Shown here: in pieces, positions 7,655-48,125 of the stretch
Numbering within the stretch: position 1 is the first letter of the stretch
Layout: the number at the start of each line of letters is the position of its first letter
Virus genome (UHGV): UHGV-0303171
DNA from: a virus
Strand: one strand, 5' to 3'
DNA: 60,072 nt
Position numbers and translations under genes: made by a program
The notes under the pieces: model-generated
The model's input: the letters and a program-made list of their open reading frames with translations, nothing else
Told to the model about the DNA's origin: nothing
Databases searched by the model: none

Positions 7655-8845
7655 ATGGGAAAGGATTTAAAAGGAAAAGAACTAGGAGTTGGTATAACTC
7701 AAAGAAAAAACGGAACCTATCAAGGAAGATATAAAGATAGGTTTGGCAATTCAAAGACAATATATTCAAAAAAGTTATCTGAATTAAGAAAAGATCTTGC
7801 TGTTAAAATTGCAGAAAATGAAACATTTGTAAGTGTAAGAGAAACCGTAAAATTGGATAATTGGTTTAATCAATGGATAAAGATATATAAAGAAAAGAGT
7901 GTACGCCCTAATACTCTTAGAGAATACACTCACATATACAATAAAAATATATCACCTTTCATAGGAAATCGCAACATAAATTCTTTGGTTAAATCAGATA
8001 TTCAAAGAATAATAACATTGGCTCATACAAATGGATATGGGTATGAAAGGCAAAATAAAATCAAAGTCATATTATCAGATCTAATGGCTAGAGCGCTTGA
8101 AGATAATTTAATTTCAAAAAACCCGGTTTTAGGATCCAAAGTTATAGACAAGAAAGAATCTAAAGCTAAATCTCTTACTCTTGAAGAACAGAACATTTTC
8201 TTTGAATATTGCAAAAATACATTTTATGATAATATGTTTAATGTTGCAGTAAATACCGGAATGAGGCCAGGAGAACTTTTTGCGTTGACAGAATCAGATA
8301 TCGATTTTAAAAATGGGTTCATCGATGTAAACAAAACGTTAGTGTACCAAAAGTATCTTACAGATACTAGAAAGACTTTTCACCTAGAAGAACCAAAAAC
8401 AAAGCAGAGTTACAGGAAAGTCCCGATAAACAGCGTTTGTAAAATATATCTCGAAAGACAGATTCAACAAAAAGCGATAGTATCAAGCAAGAGACCAAAA
8501 GAACAGAATGATTTCTTATTCACTACAAAGTACAATACTCCGATAAATTCAGTGATATATGCAGATGCTATACATGCAGTTATAAGAGAAATAAATTTGT
8601 TGCGACCTAACAATGATTTGTTCAAAAATTTTAGTGGGCATACATTTAGGCATACGTTTGCCACTCGATGCTTTGAACATGAAATCGATCCTAAAGTTGT
8701 TCAATCATATTTAGGTCATGCAAGTGTTAAAATGACTCTTGATTTATACACTCATGTTACGAAAGAAAAATCTTTTAATGATATTGAAAAACTGGTAGAT
8801 AATACGCCAAATAATATCGTGGATTTTAAACAAAAAATTTCATAA
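7655..8845 (+). CDS. int: tyrosine site-specific integrase
   Basis: The C-terminus HTFRHTFATRCFEHEIDPKVVQSYLGHASVKMTLDLYTHV is the R...HxxR...Y catalytic signature. An N-terminal arm-binding-like domain and a GGAAGGAG RBS are present. Confidence 0.95.
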   Translation: MGKDLKGKELGVGITQRKNGTYQGRYKDRFGNSKTIYSKKLSELRKDLAVKIAENETFVSVRETVKLDNWFNQWIKIYKEKSVRPNTLREYTHIYNKNISPFIGNRNINSLVKSDIQRIITLAHTNGYGYERQNKIKVILSDLMARALEDNLISKNPVLGSKVIDKKESKAKSLTLEEQNIFFEYCKNTFYDNMFNVAVNTGMRPGELFALTESDIDFKNGFIDVNKTLVYQKYLTDTRKTFHLEEPKTKQSYRKVPINSVCKIYLERQIQQKAIVSSKRPKEQNDFLFTTKYNTPINSVIYADAIHAVIREINLLRPNNDLFKNFSGHTFRHTFATRCFEHEIDPKVVQSYLGHASVKMTLDLYTHVTKEKSFNDIEKLVDNTPNNIVDFKQKIS

Positions 8846-16956: not shown

Positions 16957-17718
16957 TTATATTCCAAACAATCTTTCAAAGAAACCTTTCTTTTTCGGTG
17001 GGCGCTGCTGCATCCAGTGATTAATCAAATGCCATGTTTCGCTCTTGTCGTACATCGGAACAACTATTTTTTTGACTCCGCTATCAGGATTCATATAATA
17101 TGCCTGCCCATAGCGCGGTAAATCCTCGCAACCGTTAAAGCCTAGTATATTTCTGCTGTCCTGCGCTGACCTCGTGCGCAGTCCAACACGGGCATCAAAG
17201 TTGACCTTGATTTCTGTTGGTATGACCTTGGCAAGTGGACACTGAGTCGCGCAGATCAGATGGACTCCGGCGGCACGTCCTACCTGTGCAATACGCTGGA
17301 TCAGTGGCATAACCTGTTTTTTGTTCGTGGTCATCAAGTCCGCTAATTCGTCAATAATAACATATATCTGCGCTCCATGGTATTTCTTCTCGTGCACTCT
17401 CTGCATCTGTGTATATCTCATTTCAATGATATTCATAGCCATCTGCAAGCCTCTGACCATCTCAGCCGGTTCGGATGCATAGAACGCCGTATGCTGAAGA
17501 TATCTATAGTCTACGAGTTCCACTCTCTTCGGGTCGATAAGAATGAACTGTACTTGTGACGGTGCCTCAAATAGTGCTGTTGTGATAATTCCATTAATTA
17601 CCACAGATTTTCCCGATCCAGTAGCTCCAGCCACTAACAAGTGCGGCTGCGCCATCATGTTTTCATAATCGATAAAACTCTTTCCCTCTGGTGTGATCCA
17701 ATTTCTCTGTGCTTTCAT
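16957..17718 (-). CDS. FtsK/SpoIIIE-family DNA translocase ATPase domain protein
   Basis: Walker A is VAGATGSGKS and Walker B is YVIIDELADLM. The arginine-finger region AAGVHLICATQ is present. Confidence 0.85.
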   Translation of the reverse strand: MKAQRNWITPEGKSFIDYENMMAQPHLLVAGATGSGKSVVINGIITTALFEAPSQVQFILIDPKRVELVDYRYLQHTAFYASEPAEMVRGLQMAMNIIEMRYTQMQRVHEKKYHGAQIYVIIDELADLMTTNKKQVMPLIQRIAQVGRAAGVHLICATQCPLAKVIPTEIKVNFDARVGLRTRSAQDSRNILGFNGCEDLPRYGQAYYMNPDSGVKKIVVPMYDKSETWHLINHWMQQRPPKKKGFFERLFGI

Positions 17719-22220: not shown

Positions 22221-22733
22221 ATGACATTTAGAGAAGCATTTGAAGCAATGAAACATGGAGCAAAGGTAAAACTTCCATCATGGGCTGGATATTGGTTCTG
22301 GTGTATTCCAGCACAGTCAATTCTGATGCATACGAAAGATGGTAATGACATTGATGTTCGTAGAACTGAGTGTGTAGATTATACATTTTCAAATATTTGT
22401 TCCGATGAATGGATTTTTGCGGATGACACGAACTGTCTGGCACTTGGTGGCATGAATACATTTTCATTTCACGAAGCTATGAAGCAGGTGAAGAACAAGA
22501 AACGTGTAAGACGATTGACGTTTGAACCAGGCATGTTCTTACAACTTGCACAAGCCACTTTCAGAGCTTGTCTTGATGGTGAAAGGGAAGACAAATTTAA
22601 TAGCGAGGAATACTCAATCATAAAAGCAGGTGAATCTAAAAATTATCCTTATTACACAAAATGTGAGCAGTATGTGCCGACACAAGCAGATATGCTTGCA
22701 GAAGATTGGGTATTTGCAGAGCAGGAGGATTAA
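22221..22733 (+). CDS. DUF2829-like phage protein
   Basis: MTFREAFEAMKHGAKVKLPSWAGYWFW matches the DUF2829 N-terminal signature (M.F.EAlealK.GkkvaR.gW.gkg). Confidence 0.55.
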   Translation: MTFREAFEAMKHGAKVKLPSWAGYWFWCIPAQSILMHTKDGNDIDVRRTECVDYTFSNICSDEWIFADDTNCLALGGMNTFSFHEAMKQVKNKKRVRRLTFEPGMFLQLAQATFRACLDGEREDKFNSEEYSIIKAGESKNYPYYTKCEQYVPTQADMLAEDWVFAEQED

Positions 22734-44747: not shown

Positions 44748-46262
44748 ATGGCACAGGCATCTGTAGATATTGCTATGGAAAGTACATCTCAGGAGATTCT
44801 TGAGATGTGCAAAATTATCCGCACGATGGTGACGGATGTAGAAAAATTCGACTGGAAAAACTTCTGGGCGAATATGGCAACAGGAGAGCTGTTCTCCACA
44901 AAATTCTATAATTACGAAAGCTCAACGAATCCAGCCGGAGAAAAACTGAACGCTTCAAAAGGACTGGTTGCAGTTCCTTCCACAGACAAGGTTAAGAATC
45001 AGGATGATTTCGCTGGAAGAAATGCTTTCAATTACATTGACTGTAATTTCACCGTGACTGATTCGGGCGACAAGATTCCAGTTGCAATCAAAGGCGGTAA
45101 TGGATTTTTCAATACAGGAAAGGTCGATGTAGGAATCATGACTCCACCTACTTATTGGGGCAAGGAAGAATTTGACGGATATTACATCATTCATTTTTCT
45201 GATACGCCGCATCCGGAAGTTGGCTGCACCATTCCAACTCCGTGGACAGATGAGAATCTTGGATATGGCATGGTCACAAAGTATTATGCCGGATTGATTG
45301 ACGGAATCGCATACAGTTCTTCCGGGAACGCGATTTACAATTTTGTTTCTGCGCAGTTAGCAATCGATGAGCTGAAAAAGAAAGGCGCTGGATATGTCGG
45401 TTCAGGTTCGGAGCGTACTGCATATCTGCTCTGTATGCTGTGGATTAAGTATGCAACAAAGAATAGTCAGAAATATTTCAAAGGTTGTACCGAGACTGGT
45501 GGACATCAGTACAAAGTTGCTGAAGCTGGCGAGAACGTAAATTACGTGGCGATTACAACAGCTCAGGCGAAGAACTTCTATGTAGGAGAAACTGTATCAA
45601 TCGGTACTCCGGGAGCTAATAACAATGTTGACCGTGGACAGGCAAGCATGAATGCAATTGCAAAGAATGTGAGAATTACAGCGATCGAATCTATTGCGGG
45701 TACAGCAAACAGCAAGGTCTACGTTGAAAAGACTGGCATGACAATCACTGCGGATACTTACATTTCATCAATGCCACTTCACTCAGGTACAACAGATGAA
45801 GTGCTTGGAGCTGACGGATACATTTCCAATGACGGCAAGCACGCATTCAAGCTTGGTGGTATCGAGGAGGGTGTTGGAGCTAACTTCATCTCCATGAATG
45901 AGTTATGGAATAAAACCACAGCCAGTATGGTTGACTATTATGTGCGTCCAAAAGGCGTGGATTGGTCTGCGACAGCTTCAGGATGGAAGAAAGTTGTTAC
46001 AGTGGATTTGATTGACTCCAATGACTGTTGGATTGGAGATATCGACATTGACCTTGAGACTGGCGTTGATTATCTAAAAACGATTGGAACTGGTGATTCT
46101 GTTGGTGTCGGAGACAGACTCTATAAAGGCGGTACCGGCACTGGTTACAGAATGGCTTTGAAGCGTGGGAGTCTCAGGCTTGGCGGGCATGGCGGTTTCT
46201 GCTACTCGTATCTCTGGAACGTGGTCTCTGGGGCGTATTGGTACTGCGCCTTCTGCGTTTAG
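44748..46262 (+). CDS. DGR target protein: tail-fibre or receptor-binding-like protein with the variable repeat in its last 33 codons
   Basis: 504 aa, last gene of the tail module. The 3' 98 bp (VR) are 84 of 98 identical to the downstream TR, and all 14 differences fall at TR adenines. Confidence 0.7.
   Translation: MAQASVDIAMESTSQEILEMCKIIRTMVTDVEKFDWKNFWANMATGELFSTKFYNYESSTNPAGEKLNASKGLVAVPSTDKVKNQDDFAGRNAFNYIDCNFTVTDSGDKIPVAIKGGNGFFNTGKVDVGIMTPPTYWGKEEFDGYYIIHFSDTPHPEVGCTIPTPWTDENLGYGMVTKYYAGLIDGIAYSSSGNAIYNFVSAQLAIDELKKKGAGYVGSGSERTAYLLCMLWIKYATKNSQKYFKGCTETGGHQYKVAEAGENVNYVAITTAQAKNFYVGETVSIGTPGANNNVDRGQASMNAIAKNVRITAIESIAGTANSKVYVEKTGMTITADTYISSMPLHSGTTDEVLGADGYISNDGKHAFKLGGIEEGVGANFISMNELWNKTTASMVDYYVRPKGVDWSATASGWKKVVTVDLIDSNDCWIGDIDIDLETGVDYLKTIGTGDSVGVGDRLYKGGTGTGYRMALKRGSLRLGGHGGFCYSYLWNVVSGAYWYCAFCV
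46163..46260 (+). repeat. DGR variable repeat (VR)
   Basis: Ungapped match to TR at an offset of 196 bp. The mismatches are only A-to-N. Confidence 0.8.
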
Positions 46263-46358
46263 TTCCTACCACCTTTCAGGGGTGAATTTTTTCGCAGAAA
46301 AAAGAGGGGCTCTTCCCCTTAATTAAGTTGAAGAGAAAATACAGGACTTGTCGTGCTG

Positions 46359-46456
46359 GCGTGGGAATCTCAGGAATGGCGGGAATGGCGGTTTCTGCTA
46401 CTCGAATCTCAGGAACGAGGTCTCTAGGACGAATTGGAACTACGCCTTCTGAATTT
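46359..46456 (+). repeat. DGR template repeat (TR)
   Basis: Non-coding copy between the target gene and the RT. It carries adenines at every position that differs in VR. Confidence 0.8.
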
Positions 46457-46639
46457 TATTATGCAAACATTACGCACCGCTGGGTGCTTGCACGGCATTT
46501 CGCAACAATAAGTTGTACCGAAAGGTCTTAAATAAGTAACAAGAAAGGGAGCTGGTGCCACGGCAGTGGTACTGGCAGTTTATACGAATTGGTATAGGCT
46601 GGGGCTAGTAGAAAAAACCGAAAGTCCCTCGGAACTAAA

Positions 46640-47845
46640 ATGAAACGATATTGCAAGAACATTGATATAACAAGCAGAGAATTAATCTCAGAAGCAACAT
46701 GGAGCTGTATAAGTAATAAAATTACACATAGCGACACAATTCACATGTTCATGGAATACACAGGACTTCCGTATCAGTTCTTGATGGATGTAGCTCAAGA
46801 GAGCAGATATATGCTTGACAGCATTGTAGAAACTGTCATAGATGGAATCCGACAAGAAATACTGGAACAGAAGTATATCGTGAAGAAAATCCGTTACAGA
46901 ATCAAGAAAGATTCTTGTACCGGAAAACTACGAAATATCGGAATCCAAGATATTAAACAGCAAATTTACGATTATATCGCAGTATACGGCTTGAAAGAAT
47001 TGTTTGAGAAGAAACTTGAGTTTTATCAATGCGGAGCAGTTAAGCGTAAAGGTAATGAATTTGGAGCTGGAGCTATCAAGAAATGGCTGGCAGATAAAAA
47101 TATCCGTTGGGCATGGCAATCTGATGTTCGACATTATTATGAAAACATAAACAAAAATGTTCTGAAAAAGATGTTGAAACGTGATGTGAAGAATGACAAG
47201 CTTCTTCATTTAGTGTTCTTCTTGATTGATACGTTCGAGTATGGACTTTCTATAGGTTCATATTTGAGCCAGTTCTTAGCAAATTACTATCTGAGCAAGG
47301 CTTATATCTATGCAAGTCAACAGTTTAAGGTTCGCAAGAGGAAAGATGAAACAGCCAAGAAAGTAAGGCTTGTGAGTCATGTATTATTCCAGATGGATGA
47401 TATCATTTTCTTCGGTCGCAGCAAGAAAGACATGCAAATGCTAGTAAAGAGATTTAACGGATATATCGATAAAGAGCTAGGACTTGAATTGAAAGAAACA
47501 GCTCATTTCATTGATTTGCAGACAGGATATGTAGATATTCTTGGACGGAAGATATCAAGAAAGAATCTGACGATACGTTCATCAACATTCTTGAAAGCAA
47601 GGAGAACTTATAAGAGGGCATATTCGTATGTCTGCCACGGGAAAGAGATTCCGCTGAAACTTGCAAGAAGTTGTGTCGCAAGATACGGAGCAATCAAACA
47701 CACGGATAGCAAGAGATTTCAAAGACGATACCACATTGAAACTATAAATAAGGCAACTAAGAAAGTAATCGGACGAGCCGCGAAAGGAGAACAACGTGAA
47801 TACAATGAGATTTTCGGAGAAACAGGAGAAAGTAAACATCTATGA
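46640..47845 (+). CDS. DGR-type reverse transcriptase
   Basis: RT motifs 1-7 are recognisable. Motif 4 is GLSIGSYLSQFLANYYL, which carries the DGR hallmark IGxxxSQ. The catalytic box is FQMDDIIFFG. There are no maturase or endonuclease domains. Confidence 0.9.
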   Translation: MKRYCKNIDITSRELISEATWSCISNKITHSDTIHMFMEYTGLPYQFLMDVAQESRYMLDSIVETVIDGIRQEILEQKYIVKKIRYRIKKDSCTGKLRNIGIQDIKQQIYDYIAVYGLKELFEKKLEFYQCGAVKRKGNEFGAGAIKKWLADKNIRWAWQSDVRHYYENINKNVLKKMLKRDVKNDKLLHLVFFLIDTFEYGLSIGSYLSQFLANYYLSKAYIYASQQFKVRKRKDETAKKVRLVSHVLFQMDDIIFFGRSKKDMQMLVKRFNGYIDKELGLELKETAHFIDLQTGYVDILGRKISRKNLTIRSSTFLKARRTYKRAYSYVCHGKEIPLKLARSCVARYGAIKHTDSKRFQRRYHIETINKATKKVIGRAAKGEQREYNEIFGETGESKHL

Positions 47846-48125
47846 GCTTGAAAACGGAGCGAGAGATGCTGTTATTCTAACAAATGAAAGAGTAGTTACA
47901 GAGACAGAACCGCTGGAAGATGACAAAGAAAAAGAGACTACAGCATATGAGTATGATGGAAACATCTTCCGTACTCACTCGCTGACAGCTGAACAGATCA
48001 AAGCTGATCCTGAGAGTTATCTAGACTACGAAGGAGATGATGCTCCTACAGACGCAATGGTTGAGTATGCAAACCTTAAAATTGACGAGTACACAGCGCA
48101 GCTGATGGAAGAAGGACTTATTTAA
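47796..48125 (+). CDS. acidic hypothetical protein
   Basis: GTG 47796 or ATG 47805 after an AAGGAGA RBS. It overlaps the RT 3' end by about 50 nt. Confidence 0.45.
   Translation: MNTMRFSEKQEKVNIYELENGARDAVILTNERVVTETEPLEDDKEKETTAYEYDGNIFRTHSLTAEQIKADPESYLDYEGDDAPTDAMVEYANLKIDEYTAQLMEEGLI

Follow-up and report, generated by a model that had tools for sequence, protein, structure and literature searches.

A compact, accessory-less and probably active diversity-generating retroelement at the end of the tail module of a temperate gut phage

Results

Organization of the locus

The virus genome UHGV-0303171 (60,072 nt, one strand, 5' to 3'; this whole stretch is referred to as the window) looks like the complete genome of a temperate phage. 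Between positions 44,748 and 47,845 it contains a 504-aa open reading frame (ORF) ending in a variable repeat (VR), a non-coding template repeat (TR), and a 401-aa ORF encoding a reverse transcriptase (RT), all in the same orientation (Table 1). This locus is very likely to be a complete diversity-generating retroelement (DGR) of the accessory-less 'target - TR - RT' type, probably active, carried by a siphovirus-like temperate phage of about 60 kb from gut Lachnospiraceae. A prediction made earlier from the letters of the DNA had placed the two ORFs, VR and TR at these coordinates, and all of them were reproduced. The predicted order target-VR-TR-RT was confirmed, and the same layout was found in 84 of 87 related loci. 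The arrangement is compact: only 98 nt separate VR from TR and 183 nt separate TR from the RT gene, and the element measures approximately 1.7 kb from VR to the RT stop codon.

VR and TR form a 98-nt ungapped direct repeat with 86% identity. VR consists of the final 97 coding bases of the target gene and the first base of its TAG stop codon. The two repeats differ at 14 positions, and at all 14 TR has A whereas VR has G, C or T. With 23 adenines among the 98 positions of TR, the hypergeometric probability of such a bias is 2.5e-11. Mismatches at TR adenines are likewise found in seven close relatives and in the 84 related loci mentioned above. The TR adenines are distributed over codon positions 1, 2 and 3 of the target frame in a ratio of 12:10:1, and the codons containing them are seven AAY, three AGG, two TAC, one GAG and one ACG. 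Ten of the mismatches fall at codon position 1 and three at position 2; the single mismatch at position 3 belongs to a fixed CG/AA difference near the 3' end of the repeats (see below). Thus VR lies in a coding target, with the TR adenines at codon positions 1 and 2 on a scaffold of predicted C-type-lectin (CLec) fold. In theory the 14 variable codons allow 4.4e12 different DNA sequences and 1.2e12 different proteins. No further copy of TR and no additional VR was found in the window on either strand, even when any base was allowed at the TR adenines.

Table 1. Features of the retroelement in the window
Feature	Position	Strand	Remarks
DGR target / variable protein, 504 aa	44748..46262	+	last large gene of the tail module; C-terminal domain of predicted CLec fold, containing VR
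Variable repeat (VR)	46163..46260	+	diversified part 46170-46246; 3' part 46247-46260 (CGCCTTCTGCGTTT), invariant end resembling the initiation of mutagenic homing (IMH) site
Inverted repeats 3' of VR	46270..46319	+	CACCTTTCAGGGGTG followed by a T-run (46270-46284); AGGGGCTCTTCCCCT (46305-46319)
Template repeat (TR)	46359..46456	+	non-coding, adenine-rich (23 A), with AAY, AGG and TAC codons in the VR frame; 3' end CGCCTTCTGAATTT (46443-46456) IMH*-like, with in-frame TGA
TR-RT spacer	46457..46639	+	conserved structured RNA; presumed Sp part of the DGR RNA
Spacer element H1	46474-46487	+	fold and covariation
Spacer element H4	46551-46576	+	fold and covariation
Spacer element H5	46577-46600	+	fold and covariation
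Spacer element P6	46601-46605 with 46624-46628	+	fold and covariation
DGR reverse transcriptase, 401 aa, pI 9.7	46640..47845	+	PHROG 1423; neighbour of the Bordetella enzyme (bRT) by sequence and fold

The reverse transcriptase

The RT contains the motif-4 signature IGxxxSQ and the QMDD box that had been recognized earlier, in GLSIGSYLSQ (residues 202-211, with IGSYLSQ at 205-211) and FQMDD (residues 250-254, with QMDD at 251-254), respectively. The protein matched PHROG 1423 'reverse transcriptase' with an E value of 5.8e-53. The match to Pfam RVT_1 (23 bits) was under threshold, and the sole NCBIfam match was to the group II intron RT/maturase model TIGR04416, with 53 bits versus a cut-off of 300 bits. 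The best sequence match in the Protein Data Bank (PDB) was 8ub7_A, the bRT of the Bordetella DGR, in which GIPIGSLTSQ aligned with GLSIGSYLSQ and YMDD with QMDD. An AlphaFold2 model built with 50 homologues (pLDDT 90.3) gave the same neighbour: 8ub7_A was the top PDB match in a Foldseek search (E 3.9e-16, TM 0.85 on target), ahead of the RTs of G2L4, group II introns, DRT9, DRT2 and retrons. Counterparts of the active-site residues highlighted in bRT (10.1101/2023.10.23.563531) are present as R98, I100, D162, I205, G206, Q211, D253 and D254, where R98 was tentatively equated with bRT R74 by extension two residues past the printed alignment. In the alignment of the 50 homologues no variation is seen at D162, I205, G206, D253 and D254, and very little at I100 and Q211.

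PADLOC models of defence RTs produced weak generic matches of at most 58 bits, with no retron model among them. An Rfam search of positions 46000-48000 (E up to 1) found no intron, retron or other RNA family. By motif 4, the YxDD-type box and its nearest relatives in sequence and fold, the enzyme is most like the DGR RTs, as had been predicted; neither a profile match above threshold nor an associated RNA links it to group II intron, retron or defence RTs.

The target gene

The target has no Pfam or NCBIfam domain, and its approximately 500 database relatives are all unnamed. Its AlphaFold2 model (pLDDT 91.4, pTM 0.90) matched the DGR variable proteins TaqVP, TvpA and Mtd, all of CLec fold, in agreement with one of the two folds (CLec or Ig-like) that had been considered for the C-terminus; parts of the model resemble tailspike and fibre proteins. 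Clusters of the target at 90% identity contain 466, 377, 318 and 2056 distinct sequences. Such huge clusters of near-identical sequences are accounted for by the hypervariable tip.

The genes preceding the target code for terminase, portal, major capsid, tail tube, a 1407-aa tape measure and a 753-aa distal tail protein, with several small ORFs; those following it are XkdX (Pfam E 7e-8), small ORFs of the holin region and a GH25 endolysin. In this order no large gene of the tail module follows the target, and it is in this sense that its description as the final tail gene holds.

Comparison with related elements

A scan of IMG/VR with the RT sequence identified eight loci whose RTs are 93-96% identical to it, and others that are more distant. 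Seven of these eight close loci have an intact TR/VR pair, and in each of them every one of the 14-22 mismatches coincides with a TR adenine (P from 1e-11 to 1e-20). The TRs of the close genomes are near-identical, and the eight VRs (including that of the window) all differ from one another. Twenty-two columns have A in every TR of these eight genomes; 19 of them vary in VR, one is fixed as T, and the last two are always CG. Polymorphisms of TR at positions other than adenine (columns 9, 23, 27, 29, 30 and 71) were found identically in the cognate VR, which calls for transfer of sequence between the repeats within each lineage.

Hypervariability of VR, expected from the original prediction, was observed at the protein level as well. 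Among 35 target homologues with at least 88% identity, the mean column entropy was 0.99 bits at residues 473-504 versus 0.16 bits elsewhere, and the variable positions coincided with the TR-adenine codons, set in the invariant scaffold G.L..G..GFC.S.L..VS...W..AFCV. This comparison of the VRs of related genomes, which stands in for read mapping, shows directional TR-to-VR transfer and hypervariable VRs and, to judge from these repeats, a lineage that has been active.

One TR adenine behaved differently from the others. At 46411 TR has the Arg codon AGG, and the corresponding VR position 46215 is T, giving the Trp codon TGG, in all eight close VRs; most of the 35 homologues also have W at this place. 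This suggests that the Trp codon is under strong selection though nominally diversifiable.

In the wider clade, which extends down to approximately 33% RT identity, the 84 loci consist of VR, a gap of 76-132 nt, TR, a spacer of 165-275 nt and RT. At TR adenines lie 1347 of the 1374 TR/VR mismatches of the clade loci, a proportion (98%) that is biased upward since the repeat finder penalizes mismatches at other bases. The INPHARED phage collection contained no near-identical DNA.

The 3' limit of sequence transfer

The 3'-most diversified adenine is at TR index 83 (46442 in TR, 46246 in VR). The TR adenines at 46452-46453 are never transferred, and every VR of the close relatives has CG at that place. 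VR ends with TGC GTT TAG versus TGA ATT T in TR, and this difference is fixed in all close relatives. The VR 3' end CTGCGTTT recurs in most subclades, including more distant ones, where TR differs from it by one or two bases, among them bases other than A (T>G, T>C). In sequence, the 3' end of VR is thus distinct from that of TR and bounds the mutagenized part, and the difference behaves like the IMH/IMH* distinction in the Bordetella phage BPP-1 (PMC5758913; PMC3240598). The VR-specific end also keeps the in-frame TGA of TR out of the target gene. Since the adenines at 46452-46453 are never transferred, we infer that cDNA initiation or 3' integration must lie within TR positions 46443-46451.

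Two inverted repeats begin 10 and 45 nt after VR. They have stems of 5-6 bp and loops of 3-5 nt that are not GRNA, and their sequence is conserved in relatives. A scan of 46100-46700 for terminator-like structures found five sites versus 0.6 expected. The inverted repeats may serve as terminator of the target gene, as DGR target-recognition hairpin, or as both. The hairpin or cruciform that follows VR in phage DGRs has a consensus of a 7-10 bp GC-rich stem with a GRNA loop, 4-34 bp from VR (PMC3240598).

A conserved RNA structure between TR and the RT gene

Compared with shuffled sequence, the TR-spacer region has the better fold (z = -3.6). In H1 and H4 pairing is retained across subclades through compensatory changes on both sides of the stem. 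The pairs of an explicit structure were then counted in 26 distinct sequences anchored on the motif GGGG(C/T)TAGTA(G/A). In H5 changes on both sides were seen at nine of nine pairs. P6 is 99% paired, with three of its five pairs compensatory; its variants include the compensatory GUGGC/GUCAC and GGGGU/ACCCC and the one-sided GGGAC/GUCCC. Over the whole structure 86% of the cells are paired, versus 28-45% when the partners were slid by 1-3 columns, and the covariation score was reached by none of 500 shuffles.

P6 encloses the loop UAGUAG (46606-46611), approximately 30-40 nt before the RT start. The hexamer is invariant here and at the equivalent positions of L015-L121, across RTs as divergent as 33% identity, apart from UAGUAA in a few loci. 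Most representatives contain the motif GGGG(C/T)TAGTA(G/A), and the most divergent carry degenerate versions of it (GTGGCTAGTA, TAGACTAGTAG). The UAGUAG loop might serve in priming or be contacted by the RT. In BPP-1 the RNA that follows TR wraps bRT-Avd and supplies the priming adenosine (10.1101/2023.10.23.563531), and by analogy the structured spacer would be the portion of the DGR RNA that binds the RT and primes synthesis.

Two other pairings were considered and rejected. RNAalifold proposed a template-primer duplex between TR (CUACGCCUU) and the spacer (GGGGC-UA-GUAG). In VRs, the A within CUAC is subject to diversification; CAUC in L102 and GUAA in L015, L100 and L016 are all uncompensated; and GGGGC pairs better, with covariation, to the downstream GUCCC. 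These observations ruled out the proposed pairing as a priming duplex. The second pairing, the pseudoknot stem S2 (CCGA:UCGG), was only 71% paired with no compensatory change, and is not clade-wide.

Absence of a detectable accessory gene

Avd (or HRDC) is present in about three quarters of DGRs and is not universal. No Pfam match to either was found among the flanking ORFs. A search of 42 Avd-sized ORFs across the window showed no Avd or HRDC among the best 25 of 46 families, so that a very weak match (E > ~3e-4) is possible. The earlier statement that avd is lacking agrees with these results. An accessory gene is not a defining feature of DGRs: those of Architecture A, given as 29% of the DGRs of Wu et al., lack Avd (PMC5758913), and in the survey of Wu et al. 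(2018) 75 of 372 DGRs were without accessory gene (Architecture A/A1, TR-RT core), for which Avd-independent homing was proposed (PMC5758913).

A 109-aa ORF (47796-48125, + strand) shares approximately 50 nt with the 3' end of the RT gene and lies upstream of XkdX. Its product is acidic (pI 4.1) and had no family match in Pfam, NCBIfam, PHROGs or PADLOC. The ORF is conserved after RT in L010, L015, L038 and L039, and a more divergent ORF occupies the same place in L017. It was rejected as a new accessory gene: Avd has a pI of approximately 9.5 (PMC5758913), no family was matched, and in L040 the homologue stands between those of orf191 and XkdX with no target or RT. Its presence in L040 indicates that the ORF belongs to the phage module.

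Decayed and lost cassettes

Among the relatives there are also decayed and missing cassettes. In L041 (3380-4010) target, VR and TR are still present, as is the entire structured spacer, but the RT is truncated after approximately 38 codons and is followed directly by the homologue of the 109-aa ORF. Its TR/VR pair shows mismatches at bases other than adenine, and the locus is, by its sequence features, a decayed DGR. In the close relative L007 (4400-5021; same contig as L048) the 5' part of VR is joined to the 3' part of TR; the intervening 196 bp are gone and there is no separate TR. The C-terminus of the L007 target, ...NWNYAF, is encoded by TR, after which comes TGA; the database protein P0247 has the same TR-like C-terminus. 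The fusion represents either homologous recombination that killed the DGR or collapse of the repeat during assembly. In L040 (3434-4400) the homologues of orf191, the 109-aa ORF and XkdX are adjacent, without target gene, TR or RT. The absence of target, TR and RT beside retained flanking genes shows that the unit behaves as a gain/loss cassette in the tail and lysis module.

Phage context and host

Phage genes identified in the window include those for terminase, portal, capsid, tape measure, XkdX, GH25 endolysin and integrase. In keeping with a temperate phage, the window has a tyrosine integrase (7655-8845, + strand), a match to a Tn916-type excisionase, a helix-turn-helix repressor-like gene, a single-stranded DNA-binding protein and a methylase. 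Contigs of 60-63 kb are among the relatives in IMG/VR. The cluster of RTs at 90% identity includes a protein from 'Lachnospiraceae bacterium SGI.240', and the sole match in a scan of a species-representative genome collection was a Lachnospiraceae metagenome-assembled genome with 45% identity. The host is probably a gut Lachnospiraceae.

Two further observations concern genes remote from the retroelement. The product of 22221-22733 (+ strand), 170 aa long, contains a Tad2-like (Thoeris anti-defence 2) domain (Pfam PF11195, E 1.3e-18, above threshold), and is a candidate anti-defence protein of the phage. The integrase has a Tn916-type DNA-binding domain; together with the match to a Tn916-Xis-type excisionase and an FtsK/SpoIIIE-family ATPase (16957-17718, - strand) it forms a lysogeny module that resembles those of integrative and conjugative elements.

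Discussion

Proposed mode of action

In the model that best explains these observations, a transcript comprising TR and the structured spacer would be bound by the RT, which would copy TR faithfully except opposite adenines. The adenine-mutagenized cDNA would then take the place of VR (46163-46246) in the 3'-terminal part of the last tail gene, and the VR-specific 3' end (…CTGCGTTTAG versus …CTGAATTT in TR) would determine in which direction the transfer proceeds and where it stops on the 3' side. The outcome would be randomization of fourteen codons of the CLec-fold tip, with ~1e12 possible proteins, and presumably a change of receptor or host specificity. By analogy with BPP-1 we propose the RNA intermediate, cis-priming, a function of the spacer in the process and receptor binding by the target.

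How such an element works without Avd is a question on which we offer a tentative answer that we consider possible though somewhat doubtful. The clade might represent Avd-independent DGR reverse transcription, in which the spacer RNA, with H4 and H5 abutting P6 and its UAGUAG loop, and the enlarged N- and C-terminal helices of the RT replace the scaffolding and priming provided by the Avd pentamer; the priming nucleotide might lie in the loop.

Alternative interpretations

Several points weigh against an active DGR that diversifies a receptor-binding tip in the manner of BPP-1. The assignment of the target as a receptor-binding protein derives from gene position and fold. Activity of the element in this particular genome is probable on the strength of the relatives' repeats, and the clade-wide adenine bias must be read with the preference of the repeat finder in mind. 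The cassette can decay, as the truncated RT of L041 and the fused VR and TR of L007 demonstrate. The inverted repeats after VR deviate from the published GC-rich stem and GRNA-loop consensus (PMC3240598). Finally, no priming duplex between TR and spacer is supported, the one proposed by RNAalifold being contradicted by uncompensated changes and by mutagenesis of its own adenine.

With regard to the target, an active DGR could instead diversify a virion decoration, lysis or superinfection-exclusion protein. Such a role is unlikely, even if it fares best among the alternatives. The target belongs to no named family, DGRs of gut Firmicutes phages also hit head-decoration proteins (10.64898/2026.01.26.701711), and the protein is dispensable for some relatives, L040 being without the whole target-TR-RT unit yet having the genes around it. 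A receptor-binding role is favoured by the place of the gene, which closes the tail module behind the tape measure and distal-tail genes and is followed by XkdX, the holin region and the endolysin, and by a fold that matches Mtd, TaqVP and TvpA and in parts is like tailspike and fibre proteins.

Rather less probable is a fossil DGR that is no longer homing in this genome, its VR differences having been inherited from an active ancestor. Decayed relatives exist, namely L041 with its truncated RT and the VR/TR fusions of L007/L048 and P0247. The RT of the window, by contrast, has its full length and none of the catalytic and motif-4 residues is missing, and TR retains 23 adenines. A decaying element would collect random mismatches, such as those of L041, whereas here not a single TR/VR mismatch lies outside TR adenines; moreover, none of the close relatives has the same VR.

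The last alternative, in which the gene's 3' end was simply copied in tandem-like fashion and the copies drifted apart by ordinary mutations beside an unrelated RT (group II intron, retron or defence), can practically be dismissed: the sole NCBIfam match of the RT is a group II intron enzyme, and Pfam RVT_1 scored below threshold, but the former reached 53 of 300 bits, no Rfam RNA (in 46000-48000) or PADLOC retron model was matched, the nearest neighbour is bRT, and the confinement of all mismatches to TR adenines in an ungapped alignment, in the window and in seven close relatives and repeated independently in dozens of loci, refutes random divergence.

Relation to known systems

The accessory-less DGR described here shares with BPP-1 (mtd-avd-TR-brt) the adenine-specific transfer from TR to VR that diversifies the C-terminal CLec tip of a phage tail protein. 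In both, VR is at the extreme 3' end of the gene and has an invariant 3' segment unlike TR (IMH versus IMH*), inverted repeats follow VR, and a structured RNA follows TR. The RT is nearest to bRT by sequence and fold, and the two enzymes share IGSxxSQ and the catalytic Asp residues. Unlike in BPP-1, no avd was found. The RT is longer (401 versus 328 aa), with extra N- and C-terminal helices, TR is shorter (98 versus 134 nt), an IMH of the (GC)14 type is lacking, and the hairpins after VR have no GRNA loop. The target and Mtd have only ~11% identity.

In composition the element corresponds to Architecture A1 of Wu et al. 2018 (PMC5758913): it has target, TR and RT only, without avd, HRDC, MSL or CH1, and VR is C-terminal. 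The conserved structure of the spacer RNA is not part of that classification. TaqVP (PDB 5vf4), the variable protein of a Thermus aquaticus DGR, has 16% identity to the target. It is encoded by a bacterial chromosome and is not a phage tail component. The target has an additional N-terminal region of ~240 residues.

DGRs of gut Firmicutes (GuFi) phages have been described in temperate phages of Lachnospiraceae and relatives, where 15-72% of the members of several family-level clusters carry them; many act on tail-fibre genes, and their activity was inferred from raised pN/pS in the last ~100 bp of the target (10.64898/2026.01.26.701711). Tail-fibre DGRs of gut phages that infect Lachnospiraceae are reported to be both frequent and active. 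There is already good documentation both of accessory-less DGRs and of tail-fibre DGRs in gut Firmicutes phages (PMC5758913; 10.64898/2026.01.26.701711). The element is a textbook DGR of a described accessory-less architecture, in a type of phage and a habitat where DGRs are common, and not a new system; with it a very large known class gains a further well-annotated member.

The covariation-supported spacer RNA of this Avd-less clade is mildly new material, and it comes with natural examples of decay and loss of the cassette. Avd-less DGRs make up 29% of one curated set, and for their mechanism the mapped spacer RNA gives concrete elements to mutate. The two-component size makes the clade attractive for reconstitution or for directed-evolution tools.

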